Shown here one piece after another: positions 1 through 55,126 of a DNA stretch of 64,000 nucleotides. The stretch is from a phage. The notes beneath the pieces are model-generated. The model was not told the origin of the DNA. It saw only the letters and a list, made by a program, of their open reading frames with translations, and did not search any database. Location of the stretch: the sequence record PX393108.1; one strand, 5' to 3'. Made by a program: the position numbers and the translations under genes. The stretch's first letter is position 1. Each line of letters starts with the position of its first letter.

Positions 1-1
1 A

Positions 2-706
2 TTTGACGTATCATATGCTGCTTTTTATACTTCTTCTAAAAGAGCTATTGCATTAGAGCATGTTAAACTAAGTAATAGAAAAAGCACAGATGATTATCAA
101 ACTATTTTAGATGTTGTATTTGACAGTTTAGAAGACGTTGGAGCTACGGGATTTCCTAAAAGAACATACGAAAGCGTTGAGCAATTTATGTCAGCAGTCG
201 GTGGAACTAATAACGAAATTGCGCGTCTACCAACTTCAGCTGCTATAAGTAAACTCTCTGATTATAATTTAATTCCTGGCGATGTTCTTTATCTTAAAGC
301 TCAGTTATATGCCGATGCCGATTTACTCGCGCTTGGAACTACAAATATATCTATCCGTTTTTATAATGCATCGAATGGATATATTTCTTCAACACAAGCT
401 GAGTTTACCGGGCAAGCTGGGTCTTGGGAATTAAAAGAAGATTATGTGGTTGTTCCAGAAAACGCTGTCGGATTTACGATATATGCACAAAGAACAGCAC
501 AAGCTGGTCAAGGTGGCATGAGAAATTTAAGCTTTTCTGAAGTGTCAAGAAATGGAGGTATTTCGAAACCTGCTGAATTTGGCGTCAATGGTATTCGTGT
601 TAATTATATCTGTGAATCTGCTTCACCTCCGGATATAATGGTACTTCCTACGCAAGCATCGTCTAAAACTGGTAAAGTGTTTGGGCAAGAATTTAGAGAA
701 GTTTAA
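2..706 (+). CDS. 35: Long tail fibre hinge/connector protein gp35, C-terminal part; 5' end lies upstream of the window
   Basis: Frame is open from position 2 with no stop; translation (FDVSYAAFYTSSKRAIALEH...GQEFREV) matches my recollection of T4 gp35 C-terminus; followed by 36-37-38-t in canonical order. Confidence 0.85.
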   Translation, partial: FDVSYAAFYTSSKRAIALEHVKLSNRKSTDDYQTILDVVFDSLEDVGATGFPKRTYESVEQFMSAVGGTNNEIARLPTSAAISKLSDYNLIPGDVLYLKAQLYADADLLALGTTNISIRFYNASNGYISSTQAEFTGQAGSWELKEDYVVVPENAVGFTIYAQRTAQAGQGGMRNLSFSEVSRNGGISKPAEFGVNGIRVNYICESASPPDIMVLPTQASSKTGKVFGQEFREV

Positions 707-710
707 ATTG

Positions 711-738
711 AGGGAGCCTTCGGGTTCCCTTTTTCTTT
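711..738 (+). terminator. Stem-loop (GGGAGCC-UUCG-GGUUCCC) followed by U-run; putative rho-independent terminator after gene 35
   Basis: Hairpin with UUCG tetraloop immediately 3' of gene 35 stop, followed by TTTTTCTTT. Confidence 0.5.
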
Positions 739-745
739 ATAAATA
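738..745 (+). promoter_or_regulatory. T4-type late promoter core TATAAATA upstream of gene 36
   Basis: Exact TATAAATA octamer about 24 nt upstream of the gene 36 ATG; T4 late promoters (gp55-dependent) have this consensus. Confidence 0.55.
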
Positions 746-768
746 CTATTAAAATAAAGGGGCATACA

Positions 769-1428
769 ATGGCTGATTTAAAAGTAGGTTCAACAACCGG
801 AGGCTCTGTCATTTGGCATCAAGGAAATTTTCCATTGAATCCAGCCGGTGACGATGTACTCTATAAATCATTTAAAATATATTCAGAATATAATAAACCA
901 CAAGCTGCTGATAACGATTTCGTTTCTAAAGCTAATGGCGGTATTTATCTAAACCGAGTTACCTTTAACAAGGGTATTCAAGTCCCGGGAGCTGGCAATG
1001 GTCTGACCGGGATGTTTGTTGGGCCAGGTGATGGAGCAACTTATGATAATGTTAACCTTGATATAATATCTTGGTATGGTATAGGATTTAAATCATCTCA
1101 AGGAACAGGACCTAGGACAATTGTTTTTAACGTTCGTGACGGTGAAATTTCGGCCCGTGGTAATATAAATTCACAGCGTCAGGTGCGAGCCGAAGCCGCA
1201 GCGCCCATTGCCGCAAATGATCTTACTAGAAAAGACTATGTTGATGGAGCAATAAATACTGTTACGGCAAATGCGAACTCTAGAGTGTTACGATCTGGCG
1301 ACACTATGACGGGTAACTTAACCGCACCAAACTTTTTTTCACAGAATCCTGCATCTCAACCTTCACACGTTCCACGATTTGACCAAATCGTAATTAAGGA
1401 TTCTGTTCAAGATTTCGGCTATTATTAA
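769..1428 (+). CDS. 36: Long tail fibre distal-half proximal subunit gp36
   Basis: 219 aa; sequence MADLKVGSTTGGSVIWHQGNF... matches T4 gp36 (about 221 aa); synteny. Confidence 0.9.
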   Translation: MADLKVGSTTGGSVIWHQGNFPLNPAGDDVLYKSFKIYSEYNKPQAADNDFVSKANGGIYLNRVTFNKGIQVPGAGNGLTGMFVGPGDGATYDNVNLDIISWYGIGFKSSQGTGPRTIVFNVRDGEISARGNINSQRQVRAEAAAPIAANDLTRKDYVDGAINTVTANANSRVLRSGDTMTGNLTAPNFFSQNPASQPSHVPRFDQIVIKDSVQDFGYY

Positions 1429-1436
1429 GAGGACTT

Positions 1437-4400
1437 ATGGCTACTTTAAAACAAATACAATTTAAAAGAAGCAAAACCGCAGGTGCACGTCCTGCTGCTT
1501 CAGTATTAGCCGAAGGTGAATTGGCTATAAACTTAAAAGATAGAACAATTTTTACTAAAGATGATTTAGGAAATATCATTGACTTAAGCATTTCTGCTGG
1601 CGGTAGTATCAGTGGAAATATCACTCAAACTGGCGATTATTTACAAAATGGAACATATAATCTTAATGGAAACCAGTTTGTTTATGCAGGAAAATATATT
1701 GAATTTTTACCTAAAACTGCTGGTAATGGTGCTTGGGCAAACCAACATAAAAATAAAGCTCCTATCTTTACAGATTTAAGTTCAACTACTTCTACTTCAG
1801 AATACCATCCGCTAATTAAGCAGCGTTACAAAGATGGGACTTTTTCTGTTGGTACGTTAGTAAATGAAGGAAGTTTTAAAATTCATTATATTAATGAATC
1901 GGGAACTTCAAAATATTGGACATTTCGTAGAGATGGTGGATTTGTTGTTGATACAGGAAGTTTAACAGTAACAGATGGAAATATTTCTGCTTCTGGTAAT
2001 ATTAATTCGGCTACTGGGATAGTTTCTGCTCCGCGCGTCAATACAAAAAATATTAACCTGAGTTCTAAAACCTTTATACCGAATAATGACACGGGTTATG
2101 ACATTGTTTCTTTACCTACTTGGATTTATAATCCACCAGCAGATGGTTCTGACCGTGATACAAACGGATTGAACTACATGCGTAAAATGCGGGCTTCAAA
2201 TACTTCTAGCATTTTCCATGAAATAGTTGACTGTCGTTCGGGAAAACCACAAGAAATTTCTTGGTGGACCGGCGTAGGACCTTCATCTTTCCAGTGGGCG
2301 TTTGATACCTCTGGACGTATTACCGCAGGTAAATCTATTTCAGTAGGTCTTCCTGATAGTGGTACAAATGGTCGTTATCCTTTAGATTCTGCAATTTCTA
2401 TTGGTATTGCGATTGGCGATAACGATACCGGTATTAAATGGGTCCGCGATGGCGTTTATGACCTGATGGCTAACGGTATTTCATCCGCTACCATTTTGAA
2501 TAATGGTATTAATAGTACTAAAAAATTGATGGTTGGTTATAGTCGAGATTCCGGTTCTACTTGGGATTTCCCAAATAACAACCAAGCAATGTTTACTGCG
2601 CGTACAGATATTGATGGTAATAATAACGGCGATGGTCAGACTCATATTGGTTATAGCAGCAATTCTAAAATGTATCACTATTTCCGTGGCACGGGTCGTA
2701 TGTCTGTTAGCATGGGCGATGGACTTCTTGTTGAGCCAGGTATTTTAGACATTAAAACTGGGTCTAATAGAGTTGCTATTAGAGCAGATGGTACATTTGA
2801 CTCAACCCAACGTATTTCAATGCGTACTGGATTATTTTTATCAGGTGATGATAATACCAATGCTTTGTCATTTAAAGCGCCTACAGGTGTTGACGGGACA
2901 AAAACCATTAACTGGGATGCAGGCACTCGTAATGGTCAGAATAAAAATACTGTAACCATTAAAGCGTGGGGTAACTCATTTAACTCAACTCCAGGTAATA
3001 GAGAAACTGTATTCGAAGTTTCAGATTCACAAGGTTATTATTTCTACGCTCAACGTACTAATCCTGCGTCAGGTCAAACAGTAGGTCCTATTAATTTTAA
3101 ATTTAATGGTACTGTAGAAACTGGACATATTGTCGGGCTCGGAAATATAAGTGCCTCTGGTACAGGTTCTTTTGGTGGCAATGTTACTATGTCTAACGGT
3201 TTGTTTGTCCAAGGTGGTTCTTCTATTACTGGACAAGTTAAAATCGGCGGAACTGTTGATGCATTAAGAATTTGGAATGCTGAATACGGTGCTATTTTCC
3301 GTCGTTCAGAAGCATCTTTGCATATTATCCCGACTCCTAAAGATGCCGGTGAAAGTGGTGGAATAAGTAATCTTCGTCCGCTTAGTATCAGCCTTAATAA
3401 TGGTATGGTACAAATGCGTCATTCTGTCACGTTAGGCGATGACAGCAGAGGTGGCAATATGATTACTGTAGACAACGATAATAAACTTGTTGTTATTACT
3501 AGTCATAGTCGCATTTCTCCTAATTACCGTATGCAGTTAGGTCAGGCTGCGTACATTGATGCAGAATGTACTGATGCTGTTCGCCCTGCTGGTGCAGGTT
3601 CATTCGCTTCACAAAATAATGAAAACGTTCGTGCTCCGTTCTACATGAATATAGATAGAACCGATACAAGCACTTATGTTCCTATTTTGAAGCAACGTTA
3701 TGTCCAAGGTAATGGTTGCTATTCATTAGGAACTTTAATTAATAATGGTAACTTCAGGGTTCATTATCATGGTGGCGGAGATAACGGTTCTTCAGGACCA
3801 CAAACAGCTGATTTTGGATGGGAATTTATTAAAAACGGTGATTTTATTTCACCTCGCGATTTAATAGCAGGCAAAGTCAGATTTGATAGAACTGGTAATA
3901 TTACCGGTGGTTCTGGTAATTTTGCTAACTTAGATACGACTTTAAACCGTAAAGTAACTACCGGCTGGATTAACTATTCTTCTGTGAGTGGTTGGTATAA
4001 ATTGGCAACAGTAACTATGCCTCAAGGTGTAGCTACGGTCCAATTTAAAATAACAGGCGGTTCCGGTTTTAACGTTGGTATTTTCAAACAAGCAACAATT
4101 AATGAAATTGTATTACGCTCGGGTAATAATACACCTAAAGGAATTAATGGTGTTTTATGGCAGCGTGAAACAGATGCTATTAAAGATATTGCGTATATTA
4201 ATACCTCAGGCGATGAGTATGATGTTTATATTAGTTGTGGCACTTATTTAAATAGACTTACCATAGAATATAGCACTTCAGAAAATGCTTCTGTGGTAGT
4301 TCATGGATTATATGGGCCTACGCAATCGCCGGTAGAAGAGCTTCCTGTAGATATTGTTAAAGGTCGTGTTTTTAAACTTCTTAATAATAGCTCAGGCGTT

Positions 4401-5393
4401 TTTGACGCGGGTAGTTCTAATATTTCTACAAATGCAACTTTTGTGGCAAATACTACTATAGGATACCGTCACAAATCTAACGGCGACGAAAGTGGCTCTG
4501 CAGCTGCTCTGTTTTATAATGATGGTACTACGTTCCACATATTATTAACAGATAAAAATACCGATACTGATAAAACTAAAGCCTCGGGTTCTTATAATAG
4601 CTTGAGACCTTTTTCTATCAATATCGCTTCAGGTAAAGTAACTATTTCAAACTCTATGAGCGTTTCTGGGGTATCAGAGTTTTGGAATGGCCTTAACATC
4701 AAAAATAATGGAAGCATTAACTTTGATAAGTCTGGTGCTAACCCGAGAAATATGAGAATATTTCATGCTGGCGATGCTTCTCGCGGTAACCGCATTGAAA
4801 TTGCAGATGAAACTAACTATATTGCTTACTTTGAAAAAACTCCAGGTGGAGCTAACCGCTTTGTAGTAAATAATGCTACTGTAGCTGGTGTTAACCAAAT
4901 GAATTCATTTGGTATTAATATCAATAACGCACTTGGTGGAAATAGTATAGCATTTGGTGATAATGATACTGGAATTAAACAATCCGGTGACGGAATTCTT
5001 GATATCATTACTAACGCCGCACGCCGAATGAGATTCCAATCGGGTGACACTTATTCTGACATGAATATAAATGCACCAAACGTTTATATTCGTTCTGATA
5101 TTCGTTTGAAATCTAATTTCAGACCTATTGAAAATGCTCTTGAAAAGGTTGAACAGCTTGATGGTTTAATCTATGATAAAGCTGACTATATAGGCGGTGA
5201 AATTGTTCAGACTGAAGCGGGTATTGTGGCTCAAACACTGCAAGATGTTTTACCAGAAGCAGTTCGTGAAGTTGAAGATATTAAGGGTAATAAAATACTC
5301 ACTGTTTCTTCTCAATCCCAGATTGCTCTTCTAGTTGAAGCTGTGAAAACACTTTCTGCTCGTGTAAAAGAACTTGAATATAAACTTATGTAA
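1437..5393 (+). CDS. 37: Long tail fibre distal subunit gp37, T2/T6-like (1318 aa) with C-terminal intramolecular-chaperone-like domain
   Basis: Large Gly/Ser/Asn/Thr-rich fibre protein directly after gene 36; length differs from T4 gp37 (1026 aa); last ~110 aa (…IYDKADYIGGEIVQTEAGIVAQTLQDVLPEAVREVEDIKGNKILTVSSQSQIALLVEAVKTLSARVKELEYKLM) resembles the auto-cleaved C-terminal chaperone domain of fibre/endosialidase proteins. Confidence 0.9.
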   Translation: MATLKQIQFKRSKTAGARPAASVLAEGELAINLKDRTIFTKDDLGNIIDLSISAGGSISGNITQTGDYLQNGTYNLNGNQFVYAGKYIEFLPKTAGNGAWANQHKNKAPIFTDLSSTTSTSEYHPLIKQRYKDGTFSVGTLVNEGSFKIHYINESGTSKYWTFRRDGGFVVDTGSLTVTDGNISASGNINSATGIVSAPRVNTKNINLSSKTFIPNNDTGYDIVSLPTWIYNPPADGSDRDTNGLNYMRKMRASNTSSIFHEIVDCRSGKPQEISWWTGVGPSSFQWAFDTSGRITAGKSISVGLPDSGTNGRYPLDSAISIGIAIGDNDTGIKWVRDGVYDLMANGISSATILNNGINSTKKLMVGYSRDSGSTWDFPNNNQAMFTARTDIDGNNNGDGQTHIGYSSNSKMYHYFRGTGRMSVSMGDGLLVEPGILDIKTGSNRVAIRADGTFDSTQRISMRTGLFLSGDDNTNALSFKAPTGVDGTKTINWDAGTRNGQNKNTVTIKAWGNSFNSTPGNRETVFEVSDSQGYYFYAQRTNPASGQTVGPINFKFNGTVETGHIVGLGNISASGTGSFGGNVTMSNGLFVQGGSSITGQVKIGGTVDALRIWNAEYGAIFRRSEASLHIIPTPKDAGESGGISNLRPLSISLNNGMVQMRHSVTLGDDSRGGNMITVDNDNKLVVITSHSRISPNYRMQLGQAAYIDAECTDAVRPAGAGSFASQNNENVRAPFYMNIDRTDTSTYVPILKQRYVQGNGCYSLGTLINNGNFRVHYHGGGDNGSSGPQTADFGWEFIKNGDFISPRDLIAGKVRFDRTGNITGGSGNFANLDTTLNRKVTTGWINYSSVSGWYKLATVTMPQGVATVQFKITGGSGFNVGIFKQATINEIVLRSGNNTPKGINGVLWQRETDAIKDIAYINTSGDEYDVYISCGTYLNRLTIEYSTSENASVVVHGLYGPTQSPVEELPVDIVKGRVFKLLNNSSGVFDAGSSNISTNATFVANTTIGYRHKSNGDESGSAAALFYNDGTTFHILLTDKNTDTDKTKASGSYNSLRPFSINIASGKVTISNSMSVSGVSEFWNGLNIKNNGSINFDKSGANPRNMRIFHAGDASRGNRIEIADETNYIAYFEKTPGGANRFVVNNATVAGVNQMNSFGININNALGGNSIAFGDNDTGIKQSGDGILDIITNAARRMRFQSGDTYSDMNINAPNVYIRSDIRLKSNFRPIENALEKVEQLDGLIYDKADYIGGEIVQTEAGIVAQTLQDVLPEAVREVEDIKGNKILTVSSQSQIALLVEAVKTLSARVKELEYKLM

Positions 5394-5395
5394 AA

Positions 5396-5411
5396 GAGGG
5401 CTTCGGCCCTC
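5396..5411 (+). terminator. GC-rich UUCG-tetraloop hairpin (GAGGGC-UUCG-GCCCUC) after gene 37; weak terminator or RNA-stability element
   Basis: Perfect 6-bp stem with UUCG loop just 3' of the gene 37 stop; no strong U-tract. Confidence 0.35.
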
Positions 5412-5423
5412 TAAGGATTTTTA

Positions 5424-6209
5424 ATGGCAATTGTAGGTGTTCCTGGCTGGATTGGTGAATCTGCCGTGAATGAAACTGGACAACGTTGGATGGATGCTGC
5501 AATGAAAGCAGTTCGTGTTTCAGTTCCCGGTTGGATGAGCTCAATGGCTGGACAATCTAAAGAAGTATATTATAGCATTGGTGCTAGCAATTCTTATAAT
5601 AAAGACACACTAATAAATTGGATAAAAGCCCAAGGAAGTACTCCTGTTGTTATTACAATTACAGGCAATATCGTTTCTTCATCGACAGGTCAACCATGCT
5701 TAGATTTTCCTAGCTCATTAACTAATGCGTACGTGACACTTAATATCAATTCAGGTGTGCATGTTTGGGGTCGTGGAGGGAATGGTGGAAATAACTCTGC
5801 TGGTGGAGCAGGAGGAACTGCAATAAATAACGGAATTGGAACTAGATTACGTATTAACAACAACGGTGTTATCGCAGGAGGCGGTGGCGGCGGTGGCGGC
5901 GGATACTACTCTCCTTTTTCACAAATGAAATTGACTTTTGGCGGTGGCGGCGGTCGTCCATTTGGTGCTGCTGGCGGCTCTGCTAATATGGAACAAGGTG
6001 CTACCGCTGGTACTATTTCTGCACCCGGTAAAGGGTCTGTTAACGGTATCTATAATGGCGGGAATGGTGGTGATGCCGGAGCTGCAGGAGGTAAATGTAA
6101 TATTCGCGGCCAAGGATCAGAATATAACGGCGGCGCAGCAGGTAAAGCTGTTACTGGTAATGCTCCAACTTGGACTAAAGTTGGTACAATATACGGTTCA
6201 AGAGTATAA
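5424..6209 (+). CDS. 38: Receptor-recognising adhesin gp38 (T2-type, glycine-rich motifs)
   Basis: 261 aa with poly-Gly islands (GGGGGGGGGYY, FGGGGGRPFGAAGG) separated by variable segments; position after gene 37 and before t; T2-family gp38 is a tip adhesin of this architecture, unlike the 183-aa T4 gp38 chaperone. Confidence 0.85.
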   Translation: MAIVGVPGWIGESAVNETGQRWMDAAMKAVRVSVPGWMSSMAGQSKEVYYSIGASNSYNKDTLINWIKAQGSTPVVITITGNIVSSSTGQPCLDFPSSLTNAYVTLNINSGVHVWGRGGNGGNNSAGGAGGTAINNGIGTRLRINNNGVIAGGGGGGGGGYYSPFSQMKLTFGGGGGRPFGAAGGSANMEQGATAGTISAPGKGSVNGIYNGGNGGDAGAAGGKCNIRGQGSEYNGGAAGKAVTGNAPTWTKVGTIYGSRV

Positions 6210-11246: not shown

Positions 11247-11387
11247 TTACCATACTAGTGAATGTAGTGCCATAATAACATCAGAAATGAAAAGCACGAC
11301 TTGAATTAATCCGAACATTACTCCATAATATAGTGCTATCAATAAAATAGCAAGGGCTAATAAATAGCCCAAGATTTTCTTAATCAT
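11247..11387 (-). CDS. Small hydrophobic peptide (46 aa) immediately upstream of gene 52
   Basis: Hand-translated MIKKILGYLLALAILLIALYYGVMFGLIQVVLFISDVIMALHSLVW; overlaps the ac stop; single TM helix. Confidence 0.35.
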   Translation of the reverse strand: MIKKILGYLLALAILLIALYYGVMFGLIQVVLFISDVIMALHSLVW

Positions 11388-15410: not shown

Positions 15411-17588
15411 TTAGGCCGCAAGGGCCTTCATAGTTTTAGCGATTTGGGAAACTTCATCATCACTTAAAGAGTTGCGATAACCGATGAAGTCGGAAACAAT
15501 ACGGAATTTCTTGGTAAACTCAGCAACCATTTTATCACTGTTTTTTGAAGCATTATTTGATAGTACATCAAAAAGATTAGTTACTGTCCAGATGTCATGA
15601 CCGATGGTACCTTTTCCACCGTTGAAATATATGCCCTGCAATGAACTAACCATATTACCAAGGCGAGTATATTCTTCAGAAACTTCATCTACACTGAAGT
15701 ACTTCATCATAAAATCTAGTTCAGGATACTTGATAATTTTATCAATATATCGTTTAGCTGAACTTGAATAACCTACATACTTATCATAATCTACAGCATC
15801 AAAAGCATCTACATATAAATCACGTAGAGTTTCAAAAATACATTGACACTGACCGAGTTCTTTTACCTTTTTCTGCAAAAGCGGACGAATAACATAAAAT
15901 TCATTAATGCCAATAAGATTAGCCATACGAGTCAAAATACTCGTAGATGGATGACAAAGCGATGTAGTACCATCCATAGAGAAAATATCAGAACGATGCA
16001 TGTATGCTACGTAACCAGTAATTTCATCTGCTTCTGACGTAAGTGTAAACAATTCCTCTTTTTCCCAGCGCCCGTCTTTAATTTCAAACTTAAACGCAGT
16101 AGCAGCTTTAGGACGAGGAGCTTTACTTTTAACTGCCTTCGGAATATAACTTTTAACTAAAGCTTCAATTTCTGACAAATAATGAATGTTAACTTCATCA
16201 CTTTCAAACATTGCCATAATATCAGGGAGTAAATCAATCTGTGATTCTACTTCCGGATTAATAAACAGAAGCCGCTCATTGTGATGAATATTCAAAGTGT
16301 TATTAAATTCACTATCATCTAACGCGCGTGCTAATCCACGGACAATATTAACACGATTTTTAGTATTATCAATAACAATATTAATTTTTGTCGTATTAAT
16401 ACCAAACAGACGATAGCTTGATGCAACGGCTGAAGTTTCATGACTTTGCTTAATGCGTTTCAGTCGAGGATCAAGATTTACTTCATACACAACCCCTGCA
16501 TTGCATAACTTACTGTCAGGTTCAAACATGCTCTGCATCTTTTTATATGACAGATTTTTAGTCGTGAATTTGACTGAATTGCTAATCATATAATCTCGAG
16601 CAGAATATCCCATCTTCATCAATTCACGGTATGTATGACGAGGAGATGTAGATTCTTTAAATCGTTTTACATCTTCATTGAATGCCTTCTCACTAAGCTC
16701 TTTAACACGCTCAATAATATTTTTACGAGTACGATCATCCAGCGAAAGAGCCTCACGCGATGGAGCAATATCAAGTGAACCCATCGGAAACTTAATATAA
16801 TTCACTTCATTGCGAATGCTTAACCAGTTACGGTCTCTAATAACACCGTCAATAGGATAAACAATACCGCCATAGATAGCATACAATCCACCACGATCTG
16901 GCCAGTATCTTTCTGGATTTACGCCGTAATAATCATCAAAATCCGGAAAATAATCAATTTCACGGTCAAGACCATTAATGATAGCCAAATCTTTGAATGG
17001 TCGCATGATATAAGAAACTTCATAAGCAAAGTTTCTAAAGTCTTTTTCTTCAACTGGAACTACGATTTCAATGCCAGTTTTATCATCTGGACCCATTTCT
17101 TTTACGAATGTAGGTTTAATCTGTGGACCATCACCATCCATGTAAGCTACATAACCACGAATTTCACCTTTATGATATGAAGTAATACTAAATGTATCAG
17201 TATAACTAAACGGAGATTTAGAACCTAAACCAAATCCACCAATGAAATCATTAGATTCAGCCTTAGATGAACTGAAGTATGAATTATACAACCCAGGAGA
17301 ATTATCATCACCTTGAATATCAAAATCGCTCATACCTGGACCAAAATCTCGACAAACAAATCGCGGATCTAATCGTCCTGGAACTTGAATGATAAATTTT
17401 TCAGGATTTCCATTGAGAGCATGAGCATCAATCATGTTGGTAATCAATTCACGGACTACTGCGCGAATCTTGTTTGTATACAAATCAGATGACAGAATTT
17501 TAAATACTTTAAGAGACGCTGTGATGCTAAATGCTTTTGATTTAGAACCATTACCAAGAATTGTTTCTTTTTCAGTGGTGATAATCAT
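15411..17588 (-). CDS. rIIA: rIIA protein
   Basis: 725 aa; ATPase-like motifs; T4 rIIA length and synteny. Confidence 0.95.
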
Positions 17589-17598
17589 AATTTCCTCA

Positions 17599-17802
17599 TT
17601 AATTCATATTGCGTTTAATAACTTCAGCAACTTCTAGTAGTTCATCTTTAGTTGCGGTGTCGGATTGAATTTTATCTCTAATATCCTTAAAGCGGTTTTT
17701 AAACTCTTCGGCTTCTCCCATATCGAAAAAGCGTTGAATGATTCTATATTCTCGATGAACTGCTTTATCAAAAAGTTCTAAATTTACTTTATATGATTTC
17801 AT
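17599..17802 (-). CDS. Small protein rIIA.1-like (67 aa)
   Basis: ORF between the early promoter and rIIA. Confidence 0.6.
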
Positions 17803-17860: not shown

Positions 17861-19677
17861 TGGCTCATCCATTCTTTACGAAGGTCAGCATTATCTCCCA
17901 TGAGCATTTCAAAAAGCTCTTTCCAGTTCTCAGGAAGTTTAACAACATCATATACTGGGTTTTGAATCATCTCACGATATTCAGATTTTTCCAAAGAGCC
18001 AAGTCCCTTAATATAACGGATGCTATGTTTAGGTAGAGCATCTTTAGCACTCTCATATTCAGCGACTGTATAAAACCATTCTTGTTTTTTACCGACCTGA
18101 GCGATGATTACAGGAGTTTTGACAAAGCGAATTCTTCCTTGTTCAAACAGTTCTGGCCAATTACTAAAAAATCCGAGCAGAGAAGGATAAATGCTTCCTA
18201 GACCATCATGGTCAGCATCGGTCATAATAGCAATATTATGATAATTCAAGTTTTCGGCTTTTTCACCAAGAACTAATCCAGTGATTGCGCAAATATCAAA
18301 CAGTTCTTTGTTTTTAAGCATATCAGCATATGACATACCCCAACTGTTGAGAACTTTACCACGTAATGGATAACCACCATGAAGTTCTTTATCACGAACA
18401 TCAATAAGATACCCAATAGCCGAATCACCCTCAGTCAAGAAAAGAGTAGTGTCAGCATCTTTACCACAAAGATTCGCTTTAATATGTTTATGAACCTTAG
18501 CTTTAGAAGCCTTTTTAGCTGCTTTAGTTTCTGCTGCTTTTTCTGCCGCCAATTTACGAGCCAAAGCAGCTTCAATGATTGGCATTAAAATTGCTTCATT
18601 ATTTAAAATAGCACGTGAAATCTTTTTAGCATCAAGCTGAATATGACTACGAATTTCACCAAATGGAGAAGTCAAACGCTCTTTAGTTTGAGAATCAAAT
18701 CGCATGTTTTTCATATCACGGACAAACATAACGATAGTCAAACATTCTTTAACACGTGCTTTAGTTACATCAATTTTGAACTTACGTTTGATTTGTGGAA
18801 TAAGGTCTTCACAAATATCATCCATAACACAGTCAATGTGATGACCACCATTCTTAGTATGAATGTTATTGACGTATGTTAATTGACGAAAACCATCCGG
18901 TGAACGACCAACCGCAATAGAGCAATTTTCCTGTTCTTGAACGATAGCATGCTCATCATATTGGCGTGCATATTTCTTAAAATTACCTTGAACCTTTTTG
19001 CCATTAAAGGTAAATTGAATATCAGGATAAACTACTGCAAGTGTCTGGAGACGATCTAGTGTAATGTCAAGATAAACTTGAGATAGCTCATTAGTTTCAA
19101 ATGACATAAAATCAGGAATGAAAGTAACGCGAGTTCCTTTCCATTTTCCAGGAATAGTTTCCCATGATTTATTTTCCATGCCGTTTGAACAACGAACTAC
19201 AATATTATTTTGACCGTCGCCAGTTTCACCGACAAACATCACAGAAAAAATGTTAGTTAAACTAGAGCCAACACCGTTCATACCGCCAGTGACGCGTTCT
19301 TTGTCATCGCCGAAGTTACCACCTGCTTTTGGAATAGTCCAGGCAGCAACAGGACCAGGAATTTCTTCACCGGTAGGTGTTTTAACCATCGCCTGTGGAA
19401 TACCACGACCGTTATCTTCAACTGTTACTTGATTGTTTTTGATAGTAACATTAATTTTATTCGCGAATTTAAACTTAGTACGAATACCTTCATCTACTGA
19501 GTTATCGATAATTTCATCAATAAGCTTAACAAGACCAGGTACATACTGAACACTTTCCCATTTACCAAACAGAAAGCGCTCATGCATTTCATTAGCAGAA
19601 GAGCCAATATACATGCCGCTACGCTTTTTGATATGTTCAATATCGCTCAGAATTTTAATTTCATTCTTAATCATCAC
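17857..19677 (-). CDS. 39: DNA topoisomerase II large (ATPase) subunit gp39, uninterrupted
   Basis: 606 aa GyrB-like protein; contains in one reading frame what T4 splits into genes 39 and 60. Confidence 0.95.
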   Translation of the reverse strand: MMIKNEIKILSDIEHIKKRSGMYIGSSANEMHERFLFGKWESVQYVPGLVKLIDEIIDNSVDEGIRTKFKFANKINVTIKNNQVTVEDNGRGIPQAMVKTPTGEEIPGPVAAWTIPKAGGNFGDDKERVTGGMNGVGSSLTNIFSVMFVGETGDGQNNIVVRCSNGMENKSWETIPGKWKGTRVTFIPDFMSFETNELSQVYLDITLDRLQTLAVVYPDIQFTFNGKKVQGNFKKYARQYDEHAIVQEQENCSIAVGRSPDGFRQLTYVNNIHTKNGGHHIDCVMDDICEDLIPQIKRKFKIDVTKARVKECLTIVMFVRDMKNMRFDSQTKERLTSPFGEIRSHIQLDAKKISRAILNNEAILMPIIEAALARKLAAEKAAETKAAKKASKAKVHKHIKANLCGKDADTTLFLTEGDSAIGYLIDVRDKELHGGYPLRGKVLNSWGMSYADMLKNKELFDICAITGLVLGEKAENLNYHNIAIMTDADHDGLGSIYPSLLGFFSNWPELFEQGRIRFVKTPVIIAQVGKKQEWFYTVAEYESAKDALPKHSIRYIKGLGSLEKSEYREMIQNPVYDVVKLPENWKELFEMLMGDNADLRKEWMSQ

Positions 19678-30504: not shown

Positions 30505-30714
30505 TTAAATTACATGATTATTTATAATAAATTCTCGTGGAACGCTAAAATATCCAATTTTAGTTAATATAACAACATCACCGTTAATAACTACCGGAGA
30601 ATAATCGTCTGGAGCATTAAACTTCCAATGAGCTCTAATATTATATCCATCAGAACCAAATGCTCGACTAGCCGGTCTCCCGGCTTTTTGCCATGCATAA
30701 AAATCAAATTTCAT
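30505..30714 (-). CDS. Hypothetical protein (69 aa)
   Basis: ORF. Confidence 0.5.
   Translation of the reverse strand: MKFDFYAWQKAGRPASRAFGSDGYNIRAHWKFNAPDDYSPVVINGDVVILTKIGYFSVPREFIINNHVI
30519..30526 (-). promoter_or_regulatory. Late promoter TATAAATA upstream of soc
   Basis: Minus-strand TATAAATA about 30 nt upstream of the soc ATG. Confidence 0.5.
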
Positions 30715-30911
30715 TTTGAATGCTCTATAATTAATTTTAAGGCTTCTTCATGCACCTTACCTAATTGTATATGTCCAGTTTTAATTGTGTAAGCTTTGTG
30801 GAGCTGATTAGATAAGAGCTCACATACGAGCTCCTTGTCATAATTTTTAAATAGCTGGTCAATACGTTTCTTGTGGGCTTTCTTAAGCTGGCGTTTATTT
30901 AAACGAGCCAT
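30711..30911 (-). CDS. Hypothetical basic protein (66 aa)
   Basis: ORF with 4-nt overlap. Confidence 0.5.
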   Translation of the reverse strand: MARLNKRQLKKAHKKRIDQLFKNYDKELVCELLSNQLHKAYTIKTGHIQLGKVHEEALKLIIEHSK

Positions 30912-31429
30912 TAATAACCTCGGTCTTGACGAGCGAAGTTTTCAGCATTTTTCAGATAATAAAGTTTAAAGATTTCTTCAGCAGTAAGGCCGAGACCTTG
31001 GAACATGTTCAGAACGAAATGAAGAATATCAATCATTTCGAATTTAATTTCCAACTGGTCTTGAGGAGACAAATCAGTAATTAGAGTTTCACGACGTTCA
31101 CCATGCTGCGACTTCCAAGGCTTCCATACAGCAGATGCATCTTTTTCACCATTGCTCATACCACCAAGAGAAGTCAGAAGTTCACGGAATTCATCATCAA
31201 TGTAATCTTTCTGATTACGCAGCCAATCGACAACTTCGCCTGCAGTAGCCAAATCATCAGGATGACGGTTATATTCAGGTTTATCTTTAGCTAAACGAAC
31301 CTGCAAAGATTTCTGCATATCAAGCATAACTTGCAGTGGGTCTTTTTCGTCACCGAGAATATCCCAGTATTCATTTTGAGCTTTATCAGCGCCTTCGATC
31401 AGTTGCGAACATTCATTAAAGTAAGCCAT
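30911..31429 (-). CDS. 56: dCTP/dCDP pyrophosphatase gp56
   Basis: ORF-track frame trimmed to MAYFNECSQLIEGADKAQ… (172 aa); MazG-like; T4 gp56 is 171 aa. Confidence 0.9.
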   Translation of the reverse strand: MAYFNECSQLIEGADKAQNEYWDILGDEKDPLQVMLDMQKSLQVRLAKDKPEYNRHPDDLATAGEVVDWLRNQKDYIDDEFRELLTSLGGMSNGEKDASAVWKPWKSQHGERRETLITDLSPQDQLEIKFEMIDILHFVLNMFQGLGLTAEEIFKLYYLKNAENFARQDRGY

Positions 31430-31500
31430 TATTTTTCCTTTCAATTCATGGGTTAGTAGATTAATTATACAATAAATATATAAAGCAATAAGGAGGACAT

Positions 31501-31701
31501 ATGGTACAAAAATTAATGGCACTTGTTAATGCCATAAAAGGTAATAAAAAACGTATAGCTTTTACTATTTCTGCTATGGTAGGAATTTTACTTTGGAATT
31601 TTGTTTTATCACCAATTGCTATTGCTCATGGTGTTAATATTCCAGTAATTACTCTTGATACATTCGTAGATTTAGCATTTGCTTTAGTTGGGTTAATTTA
31701 A
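31501..31701 (+). CDS. Small membrane protein (66 aa) on the opposite strand in the 56-61 gap
   Basis: Strong Shine-Dalgarno AAGGAGG 6 nt before the ATG; two hydrophobic helices. Confidence 0.45.
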   Translation: MVQKLMALVNAIKGNKKRIAFTISAMVGILLWNFVLSPIAIAHGVNIPVITLDTFVDLAFALVGLI

Positions 31702-32726
31702 ATCTTAGCATATTTAGATAGCCGCATTTTAGCCATCAACCCCTGGGCAATATTATTTTTCATATATTCCATAATTTGTTCAGGGGTTGCACCTTCCTTT
31801 CTAATCATATCATTAACATCTTTTGATTTCCAGGGAGATTTGTCCCAAAACATAACCCTTTCTCCTGCATCAACTAATTTAGTCATTCGTTTAATAGTGT
31901 CAGGATGACGAGGTTCATTATCTAAAACCCACACACGTCTATCTTTAAATGGAACAATTTCTAGGTCTAATTGACCACCTGTAATAGCTATACCATTTTC
32001 AATAAAAAGTGAATCTATAGGTCCTTCTAGAACATATACATCACCATCTTTAACTCGTTCAACGCCATAGATTTTTGTTGCTTCAGGATAAGCTTTGATG
32101 GTGATATATTTTTGAGGAGCATCTTTCTTTAATGCACGTCCTTGAAAAGACTCAGCTTTTCCATTAGCATTATAAATTGGAATAACAAGACGAGGCTCAG
32201 GTATTTCCTTTTTATATGTTCCCGGTGCTATGCTATTAACTAATTTAGGCCATTCGGTTGTAAACCAAAGATATTTCCATTTATCCTTTGGAATACAACG
32301 AGCTTTTACATATTTTATAATTGGATGGTCTTCCGCCAGTTTATCTAATCTAATGCATGACGGAAGAGATTTAATTATTTTCTTCTCAGGTTGTTTAGGA
32401 AGTTCTTTAGGTTTTTCTACTGGACGACTTTTACCTTTTTCTTTTCTTATTTCAAAGATATACTCACGATATAAATCAGGTTCAAACTCCTTTAAATATA
32501 TTCCGATTGGTGCATGATAGTTGCAATTATAACAATGAATATTTCCTTCATTATTATCGCCATAATACCATCCACGGGCTTTATTTTGGTCGGTTTTTGA
32601 ATCTCCACAAACAGGGCATCTAAACCGCAATTTAAAAGTTGAACTATTATTTACTTGTGTGAATTTAGGTAAATGAGCTAATGCACGGTATGCAAACTCA
32701 TTATCAATCCAAGGTATTGATGACAT
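31698..32726 (-). CDS. 61: DNA primase gp61
   Basis: 342 aa; zinc-ribbon CPVCGDSK…CYNC and TOPRIM-like region; matches T4 gp61. Confidence 0.95.
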   Translation of the reverse strand: MSSIPWIDNEFAYRALAHLPKFTQVNNSSTFKLRFRCPVCGDSKTDQNKARGWYYGDNNEGNIHCYNCNYHAPIGIYLKEFEPDLYREYIFEIRKEKGKSRPVEKPKELPKQPEKKIIKSLPSCIRLDKLAEDHPIIKYVKARCIPKDKWKYLWFTTEWPKLVNSIAPGTYKKEIPEPRLVIPIYNANGKAESFQGRALKKDAPQKYITIKAYPEATKIYGVERVKDGDVYVLEGPIDSLFIENGIAITGGQLDLEIVPFKDRRVWVLDNEPRHPDTIKRMTKLVDAGERVMFWDKSPWKSKDVNDMIRKEGATPEQIMEYMKNNIAQGLMAKMRLSKYAKI

Positions 32727-32894
32727 TTTTACTCTTCTTTTTCTTTAGATTCCTCTTTTTTCTTTTTAGGAATCTGTTCAGGACCTTTATTTACTACAGC
32801 ACCTGACGTTGTTCCAGTAGAGATATTTTCAGGATTACCACCCGAATCTCCAGCTACCATATCTTCTTTAATAAATTCTTTATATGTTTTCATA

Positions 32895-33251
32895 TTAACC
32901 TCTATTCATAAAAGCATTAAAAATTTGGTCATCAATCGATGGAATAGCAACCTTTTCGGCATCATTTAGCAAATCATTAATTTCATCAGATAGCATAACG
33001 CATGTACCTTTATTTCCTGTAATTGTTACTGCGCAATTACGAACGTTTTCTTTATCAAATTTTAGGTTAATATTTTCGTAGTGAAAATCCTTTAATGCCG
33101 AATATATCTTTAAAATGAAATTGTCTTTTACTACAATAAACCCAACTTCACTATTAAAACGTGGTTCATGGAAACTGTAATAAACCTTTTCATCTATAAA
33201 ATCGTATGAAATTTTTTCCATTTTTAAATATGAAAATTCAGAACTATACAT
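32895..33251 (-). CDS. Hypothetical protein (118 aa), 61.1-like position
   Basis: ORF. Confidence 0.55.
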   Translation of the reverse strand: MYSSEFSYLKMEKISYDFIDEKVYYSFHEPRFNSEVGFIVVKDNFILKIYSALKDFHYENINLKFDKENVRNCAVTITGNKGTCVMLSDEINDLLNDAEKVAIPSIDDQIFNAFMNRG

Positions 33252-54657: not shown

Positions 54658-54684
54658 ATCAAATCCTCAAAGGCAATTCATATG

Positions 54685-54725
54685 TTAATAATACCACAGT
54701 TTAAACTTCTTGTAAACAACTTTGT
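54685..54725 (-). promoter_or_regulatory. T4-type early promoter (-35 GTTTACA, 17 nt, -10 TATTAT)
   Basis: Minus strand GTTTACAAGAAGTTTAAACTGTGGTATTAT. Confidence 0.55.
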
Positions 54726-54795
54726 GAAAATTATTTTAGGGAATGATAAGAAGGGAACGATAGCTTAGAATGGTAATATACAGAATGTGAGAAAG

Positions 54796-54814
54796 AAAGG
54801 CCCAGAGGGCCTGT
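54796..54814 (-). terminator. AGGCCC-AGA-GGGCCU hairpin after nrdH
   Basis: Inverted repeat followed on the minus strand by TTCTTTCTC. Confidence 0.4.
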
Positions 54815-54815
54815 C

Positions 54816-55124
54816 TTAGTCTTCTATGATATCTCTATCATATCCAAGTGAAATGAGAGTTTCTTTGAAGTGTTTAATGTTCTTTTGTCTAGAATCATTG
54901 ATGAAAATGACTGGATAACGAATGTTAAGAGATGTGAATCCAGCGCGTTTAGCAAGAGATACAATCAGTGGACGATCATACTCAATCTTACCATTATTTG
55001 TAAGAACTTTATAGAAAGTAAAAGGAGCATTGAGCTCCTTTAGAAGTTTTGTAACTGATTGACATCCAGGACAACGACCTACTTCATCTGGAATTCCATA
55101 GACTTCAATCTTGTTTTGTTTCAC
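54816..55124 (-). CDS. nrdH: Glutaredoxin-like protein NrdH
   Basis: 102 aa with CPGC redox motif; adjacent to nrdG/nrdD. Confidence 0.7.
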   Translation of the reverse strand: MKQNKIEVYGIPDEVGRCPGCQSVTKLLKELNAPFTFYKVLTNNGKIEYDRPLIVSLAKRAGFTSLNIRYPVIFINDSRQKNIKHFKETLISLGYDRDIIED

Positions 55125-55126
55125 AA

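Follow-up and report, generated by a model that had tools for sequence, protein, structure and literature searches.

In T4, all early and middle transcripts run counterclockwise, which corresponds to the minus strand in the orientation used here, and late transcripts alone use either strand (PMC2988020). A described counterpart of the present locus is the T4 56-dam-61 region (NC_000866 16270-18963; X01416), in which dam (16846-17625) and gene 61 (17935-18963) are separated by a 310-bp gap that carries no annotation. The order in T2 is 56-dam-T2_31-ORF-61, and the small ORF beside gene 61 bears the label 'similar to RB69ORF029w; RB32030w' in that phage. Orthologues are RB69ORF029w, RB32ORF030w, and VR7ORF033w, and the gene is already catalogued, under the name 'hypothetical protein', for T2 (MH751506) as well as in hundreds of Tequatrovirus and Mosigvirus records.

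The window analyzed here, a stretch of 64,000 nucleotides from phage sequence record PX393108.1, is a segment of a T-even (Tequatrovirus) genome. Over the 1.85-kb stretch at 30900-32750, identity is 99.4% to Escherichia virus KFS-EC3 and 97% or more to many phages of the RB32 type (e.g., HY01, ime09, vB_SsoM_113). Within it, genes 56 and 61 are separated by a gap of 268 nt (31430-31697) that is filled by a plus-strand ORF of 66 codons (Table 1). A spacer of 71 nt lies between gene 56 and the ORF, which is arranged tail-to-tail with gene 61 in such a way that the two stop codons share 4 nt, and the ORF list of the window contains no minus-strand ORF covering 31501-31701. When plus-strand ORFs of at least 30 aa were surveyed in the minus-strand block at 6897-64000, this was the sole frame that has both a Shine-Dalgarno (SD) sequence and an ATG and lies mostly outside minus-strand ORFs. 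A first-pass annotation had described a plus-strand ORF with a strong AAGGAGG ribosome-binding site between genes 56 and 61, had called it the only convincing plus-strand ORF of the minus-strand block and a convergent gene for a small membrane protein, and had put the interval at about 270 bp; the sequence, the PHROG matches, the ORF survey, and the conserved tail-to-tail arrangement with gene 61 agree with a convergent gene of this kind for a small hydrophobic protein. The biggest gap of the early block, 469 nt at 54658-55126 that lack a minus-strand ATG-initiated ORF of at least 50 aa, contains plus-strand ORFs that are short and unconvincing. Between soc and gene 56 (30505-30911, minus strand) lie two small ORFs of 69 and 66 aa that are soc.1/soc.2-like, as in T2 and RB32-like phages.

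Table 1. Features of the 56-61 interval and exact ATAAATA sites in the 64,000-nt window.
Feature	Coordinates	Strand	Basis or remarks
Gene 56 (dCTPase/dUTPase)	30911-31429	-	phrog_173, E 1.5e-46; annotation of relatives
Putative extended -10 element TGTATAAT	31464-31471	-	read from the sequence; spaced by 11 nt from the MotA-box-like element; shares base 31471, the first of the late motif
Putative late promoter AATAAATA	31471-31478	+	assigned by motif; A(-13) variant of T4 TATAAATA; ends 22 nt before the ATG
MotA-box-like element TTGCTTTA	31481-31488	-	read from the sequence; flanked by the putative late promoter and the ORF's SD
Shine-Dalgarno AAGGAGG	31490-31496	+	4 nt 5' of the ORF ATG
66-codon ORF	31501-31701	+	ATG 31501, TAA 31699-31701; phrog_2024 match
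Terminator-like hairpin and T-run	31516-31535	-	at ORF codons 6-12; ~160 nt downstream of gene 61
Gene 61 (DNA primase)	31698-32726	-	phrog_47, E 7.6e-107; annotation of relatives
ATAAATA sites	739, 1252, 5823, 6215, 11360, 20309, 31472	+	exact match
ATAAATA sites	942, 8994, 30519, 58239	-	exact match

The ORF in T4 and the dam cassette

Comparison with T4 reveals orthologous genes 56 and 61 and the same small ORF, which is 94% identical to that of the window and occupies NC_000866 17738-17938 (plus strand) in the gap between dam and gene 61. None of three T4 records (NC_000866.4, AF158101.6, and X01416 from 1984) contains a CDS for it; in NC_000866.4 and AF158101.6 a conserved gene is thus missing from the curated T4 reference annotation, and RNA-seq, proteomics, and knock-down screens that rely on this annotation would therefore not report on the gene. 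The value of the present locus for genome cartography is small, as the ORF has already been deposited and dam is missing from the majority of T4-like coliphages in the database. A mild interest remains in that the T4 reference omits a conserved gene, which is probably late and, in the window, is the only plus-strand gene of an early block of ~57 kb. The two regions differ at two further points: T4 has segF, whereas the window has the soc.1/soc.2-like ORFs in its place, like T2, and T4 has the dam cassette, whereas the window does not. The ORF follows directly after the gene 56 promoter region in the window, but after dam or T2_31 in T4 and T2.

The absence of dam from the window, claimed in the first-pass annotation, is borne out, as a tblastn search of the window with T4 Dam found no homologue (best E 5.5). 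The same search found no homologue in the complete genome of Shigella phage SH-1 either (best E 0.95). This close relative is collinear with the window, with 96-98% identity over ~6100-64000 (the tail-fibre region at 1-6100 being lower in identity or unaligned). However, the idea that the ORF is present "instead of" dam is wrong, because T4 carries both genes, as does T2. Likewise, the short 56-61 interval does not mark this phage in particular. The same dam-less order, 56-ORF-61, is found in RB32-like Tequatroviruses, in RB69 and mar005P1 (Mosigvirus), in VR7/Gaprivervirus, and in two metagenomic lineages, and T4-type Dam (at least 90% identity) is present in only 182 records, compared with ~503 Tequatrovirus-type records with the ORF. 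Among these phages, a short interval without dam is the common condition. The gene 69 that had been expected in the T4 interval is an obsolete 1984 reading of present-day 56 and segF (X01416 annotation).

The 71-nt spacer of the window aligns through its first ~60 nt to the T4 56-dam spacer and through its last ~30 nt to the end of the T4 dam-ORF spacer. Since the ends of the spacer match two T4 spacers, the difference between the phages can be described as a clean cassette, consisting of the 780-bp dam gene and a 112-nt upstream region. The cassette, dam together with its own promoter region, is present in T4/T2-type genomes and absent here, and this difference is a matter separate from the ORF. 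Recombination at repeated early-promoter cassettes (PeSLs; PMC2839356, PMC4122927) is a known route by which cassettes of this sort may move. In T2, an extra gene for a hypothetical protein of 181 aa, T2_31 (MH751506 15998-16543), lies in the dam-ORF interval, and the slot between gene 56 and the ORF therefore holds varying cargo depending on the phage. In RPN226, an RB32-like phage, an HNH endonuclease is encoded at some point in the stretch that matches 30900-32750.

Conservation and distribution of the reading frame

The product of the ORF matches phrog_2024 (E 5.4e-31), a family of unknown function, with residues 2-66 aligned to positions 1-65 of the 65-position profile. At E<=1e-3, 33 database clusters match. 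By tblastn, the ORF is present in 693 of 50,697 phage records, and 687 of these matches cover at least 80% of its length; ~503 records have at least 89% identity (Tequatrovirus), and ~190 have 48-54% identity (Mosigvirus and Gaprivervirus). RB69ORF029w, RB32ORF030w, and VR7ORF033w are the same gene as the ORF of the window and resemble it in length, position, and orientation beside gene 61, with identities to the window product of 89-100% for Tequatrovirus copies versus 48-54% for those of Mosigvirus and Gaprivervirus. Two divergent metagenomic lineages (68% and 52% identity) keep the order 56-ORF-61, and IMG/VR contributed only seven further loci. When 1.8 billion representative proteins were searched with a profile, no distant relatives were found, the seven hits being six family members or fragments and one spurious repeat protein. 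RB43 (Pseudotevenvirus) has no counterpart of the ORF and carries an HNH endonuclease gene between 56 and 61. Because the wide profile search adds nothing and RB43 has no counterpart, the family appears to be confined to a few genera of Tevenvirinae.

Gene order is constant across this range. Every locus examined has either 56-ORF-61 or 56-dam-(T2_31)-ORF-61, and among the matches listed, nearly all annotated records have a primase annotated at the ORF match. The ORF always adjoins gene 61, and variable cargo sits on the gene 56 side. The stop codons of the ORF and gene 61 overlap by 4 or 14 nt, or are only 9 nt apart, in most lineages, and in VR7 the end of the ORF lies 207 nt from gene 61. 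This gap in VR7 (HM563683) contains a diverged tandem copy of the small gene, beginning MGTLFYQIWKLTSKKDKKLIMGFLALDIFLWNLLVVPIAATQGVHLPQV, which is open (~2702-2900 of the extracted locus) and meets no stop until it runs antisense into gene 61. At the same position in TH40, the tandem copy is broken by stop codons and a deletion, and the copy in these two phages looks like a decaying duplicate.

Pairwise comparisons show that, in no fewer than four or five lineages, the reading frame is maintained and purifying selection acts on it. By the Nei-Gojobori method, dN/dS ranges from 0.10-0.40 for pairs within Tequatrovirus to 0.10-0.52 for pairs from different genera, in which synonymous change has reached saturation (pS 0.53-0.78), and it is 0.59 for VR7 versus TH40; overall, the values are mostly 0.1-0.3, rise to 0.6 in Gaprivervirus pairs, and are below 1 in every computable pair. 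At ~50% identity, the length of the ORF is still 65-66 aa, and a series of motifs is kept (AIKGxxK, WNF, P38, HG, L/F-D/E-T/S-x-V-D, and a C-terminal (A)L.GL(I/V)). An SD sequence (AAGGAGG or AAGGAGA) precedes the ORF in all eight lineages compared. The terminator-like hairpin on the minus strand was considered as the cause of the conservation at the 5' end of the ORF and was rejected; it occurs in Tequatrovirus copies only and so is unable to explain it.

These observations bear on whether the ORF is a gene at all. Minus-strand promoter elements and the terminator-like hairpin are present in the region, and the curated T4 annotation does without the ORF, as would be expected of a chance frame in a spacer that is conserved for promoters, for the gene 61 terminator, or for origin elements. 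Such a frame, however, would not account for dN/dS values below 1 at saturated dS, for a frame intact in 687 of 693 records, or for a length and motifs that persist near 50% identity; moreover, the hairpin is specific to Tequatrovirus, and the promoter elements lie upstream of the ORF with none inside it. Because of the selection data, a non-coding origin is effectively excluded, and the ORF is almost certainly a real gene.

Late promoter motif and the putative control region shared with gene 56

Late genes of T4 are expected to have a TATAAATA-type element at -13 to -6 with no -35 element, and an element of this type precedes the ORF, from which transcription would start near 31484. Its first base is A, and A for T at -13 is the commonest variant among T4 late sites (9 of the 50 listed; PMC2988020). 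The core of the motif, ATAAATA, is ~3.5-fold under-represented in the window (11 sites observed versus 38 ± 6 expected from shuffles), a depletion consistent with selection against stray late promoters. Five of the 11 sites are located 18-30 nt 5' of an ATG that opens an ORF. These five promoter-like sites precede a 219-aa plus-strand ORF by the tail-fibre genes, holin gene t, soc, a 157-aa ORF that is taken to be gene 49 from its size and position, and the 66-codon ORF; the variants are AATAAATA for t and the 157-aa ORF and TATAAATA for soc. An SD sequence is visible by eye at four of the five, with none obvious before gene 49. The 66-codon ORF thus resembles T4 late genes with A(-13) promoters (t and gene 49, as seen in the window), which have AATAAATA 18-30 nt before the ATG and, in the case of t, an SD sequence in between. 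The plus-strand sites at 11360 and 20309 have no obvious ORF after them and could start antisense late RNAs.

The motif is also conserved between phages. An nATAAATA sequence occurs 16-22 nt 5' of the ATG in seven of the eight lineages, amid surrounding sequence that is otherwise unrelated, with A as the first base in the window, RB69, and SRR8048117, G in T4 and T2, and C in VR7 and TH40. Against a late promoter, no lineage has T at -13, and G (T4/T2) and C (VR7) are rarer variants. The motif is GATAAATA in T4 (NC_000866 ~17,7xx), and the eighth lineage, a metagenomic one (L021), has TATTAATA in place of an exact ATAAATA. In T4 and T2, the motif is found in the ORF-proximal spacer (which in T4 is the dam-proximal one), and the 56-proximal spacer, the homologue of the window's own, does not contain it, whereas in the window it lies inside the promoter spacer of gene 56. 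Because its place relative to the minus-strand promoter elements varies, and because T4 and T2 keep the ORF-proximal copy, the late motif belongs with the ORF. The possibility that ATAAATA is a mere A/T-rich flank of the minus-strand MotA box was rejected, given that the offset differs by lineage: relative to the MotA box and -10 element, the motif is in the spacer in the window, overlaps the box in VR7, and is upstream of the box in RB69, and it is kept in T4 and T2 though no MotA-box-like element adjoins it there.

The assignment of a late promoter to the ORF of the window is based on motif and comparative evidence, and it is likely that the ORF is transcribed late from a gp55-type promoter. 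On the other side, a published prediction of late promoters in RB69 has no site at this ORF. Literature searched by the names of the ORF contained no transcript, ribosome-profiling, or proteomic evidence for it, and literature on T4 ribosome profiling and unannotated ORFs, and on late antisense start sites, yielded nothing relevant.

The 71-bp spacer also appears, from its motifs, to retain the middle promoter of gene 56, which would be the counterpart of the T4 oriA primer promoter. The T4 counterparts of its MotA box and -10 element are annotated in X01416 and NC_000866. The first-pass annotation placed oriA in this interval of T4 and took the convergent gene to stand here instead, but the middle promoter counterpart of gene 56 appears, by motif, to be kept. 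Within 33 bp (31464-31496), the minus-strand elements of the putative middle promoter are interleaved with the late motif and SD sequence of the plus strand. With what appears to be a late gene packed in beside that middle promoter, the spacer offers a compact example, open to testing, of divergent promoters that overlap and of convergent transcription.

Predicted membrane topology and candidate roles

An AlphaFold2 model from an 11-sequence alignment (mean pLDDT 78) contains helices at residues 2-14, 16-42, and 52-65 and a loop at 43-51, and Kyte-Doolittle means over 19 residues peak at 2.0 (residues 23-41) and 1.9 (residues 48-66). Residues 19-42 form a clear transmembrane (TM) segment, and the C-terminal helix in the model (52-65) has only 14 residues. 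For RB69ORF029w, one TM segment was predicted (21-41) and SignalP was negative (PMC1524935 Additional file 2). Of the two TM helices proposed in the first-pass annotation, the one at 19-42 is thus upheld, while the second is called into question by the shortness of the C-terminal helix and by the single TM segment of the published RB69 prediction. The basic N-terminal helix has the cluster KGNKKR ahead of the first TM segment, which by the positive-inside rule suggests that the product is oriented with its N-terminus in the cytoplasm. Positions 53 and 57 carry an acidic pair that hardly varies. The protein thus has one firm TM helix, and its hydrophobic C-terminal helix may either form a hairpin with it or lie at the periplasmic face.

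Searches for related proteins found no match in Pfam (E<=10) or NCBIfam (E<=1), holin families included, no match at E<=1 in the PADLOC catalogue of defence and counter-defence genes for three family members, and no match in the PDB with Foldseek (best E 6.3). Foldseek against BFVD returned the family itself and two weak matches (E 0.5-0.6, 25-28% identity), both to proteins of 63 aa, A0A6B9Y0M4 (Enterobacter phage vB_EclM_CIP9) and A0A873WJ41, at least one of which is from another T4-like phage; these could be distant relatives or simply share a common helical-hairpin shape. None of the family, defence-catalogue, or structure searches points to a function. Class II holins and pinholins (S21), T4 Imm, and T7 gp17.5 are comparable in being small phage proteins with one or two hydrophobic helices, but no sequence or profile similarity to the ORF product was found in the Pfam and NCBIfam scans, and their charge is distributed differently. 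T4 Imm is, in addition, an early gene.

The available evidence suggests that the ORF is probably a real protein-coding gene, with a late promoter of its own, for a small membrane protein. At late times, RNA polymerase with gp55, gp33, and gp45 would start near the position given above and produce an mRNA with a short leader. No terminator-like site was found on the plus strand up to position 33000, so that this transcript would run on, antisense, into the 3' portion of gene 61. The product would then insert with its KGNKKR N-terminus in the cytoplasm and residues ~19-42 across the inner membrane, and the conserved acidic and hydrophobic C-terminal helix (LDTFVDLAFALVGLI) would either return into the membrane as a hairpin or rest on the periplasmic face, a place from which it could form oligomers or contact a partner. 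A late accessory function in the envelope or in the timing of lysis is a guess, and any specific biochemical role for the product is doubtful at best.

A more definite role in lysis would follow if the product were a holin-, pinholin-, or antiholin-like protein that accumulates late in the inner membrane and affects the timing of permeabilisation or lysis inhibition. The product is small and has two hydrophobic segments, the variant and spacing of its late promoter resemble those of holin gene t in the same window, and one member of the family is named 'Holin' in UniRef. That label has no visible experimental basis, however, and the other named members examined are called 'hypothetical protein' or 'uncharacterized protein'; the profile searches that returned nothing covered holin families, the charge of the product is N-terminal, as opposed to the charged C-terminal tail typical of holins, and a C-terminal helix of just 14 residues also argues against such a protein. 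In addition, T4 already has the holin T and the antiholins RI and RIII. The genes t, e, rI, and rIII and the spanins already explain the lysis genetics of T4, so that a role in lysis is not required of the ORF product, and a holin-like identity is considered unlikely. It is less probable still that the product is the precursor of a secreted peptide, in which residues 1-42 would act as a signal peptide that is cut after A-x-A (AIA|HG), freeing a 24-residue peptide (HGVNIPVITLDTFVDLAFALVGLI) into the periplasm or onto the outer leaflet. Such a precursor would show a basic n-region followed by a hydrophobic core and by A-I-A, A-L-A, or A-V-A ahead of the conserved HG, as is seen in the Tequatrovirus, VR7, and P0030 lineages. 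However, signal peptides that are cleaved usually have a core shorter than the ~24 hydrophobic residues found here, the motif is L-V-A in Mosigvirus, position -1 is E or T in two Tequatrovirus variants, and the negative SignalP result for the RB69 protein argues in the same direction.

Selection might instead act mainly on the plus-strand RNA, with the ORF secondary: a late transcript could pair with the 3' end of the gene 61 message, or convergent transcription could interfere with it, which would help to shut off the expression of early replication genes. The tail-to-tail arrangement with gene 61 in every lineage, with stop codons that overlap or are 9 nt apart in most, is in keeping with this reading, as is the fact that some sites in T4 are known to be transcribed from either strand, each at its own time (PMC2988020). 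The failure to find a terminator-like site on the plus strand within 31700-33000 points the same way. On the other hand, purifying selection acts at the amino-acid level while synonymous sites are saturated, which indicates that the protein itself is selected, and a strong SD sequence is conserved. The VR7 ORF ends well short of gene 61, so an overlap between the two is not required. A primarily antisense function is for these reasons improbable, although antisense and protein roles are compatible and not mutually exclusive.

On the boldest reading, T4, the best-studied phage of all, would contain an overlooked late-promoter gene, conserved in Tevenvirinae and missing from the T4 reference annotation, for a small membrane protein that genuinely contributes to the late stage of infection. 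It might act, for example, in the timing or inhibition of lysis, in keeping the envelope intact, or in the assembly of heads at the membrane, and the convergent transcript of the gene may also silence the primase message. Taken as a whole, this reading is rather doubtful.
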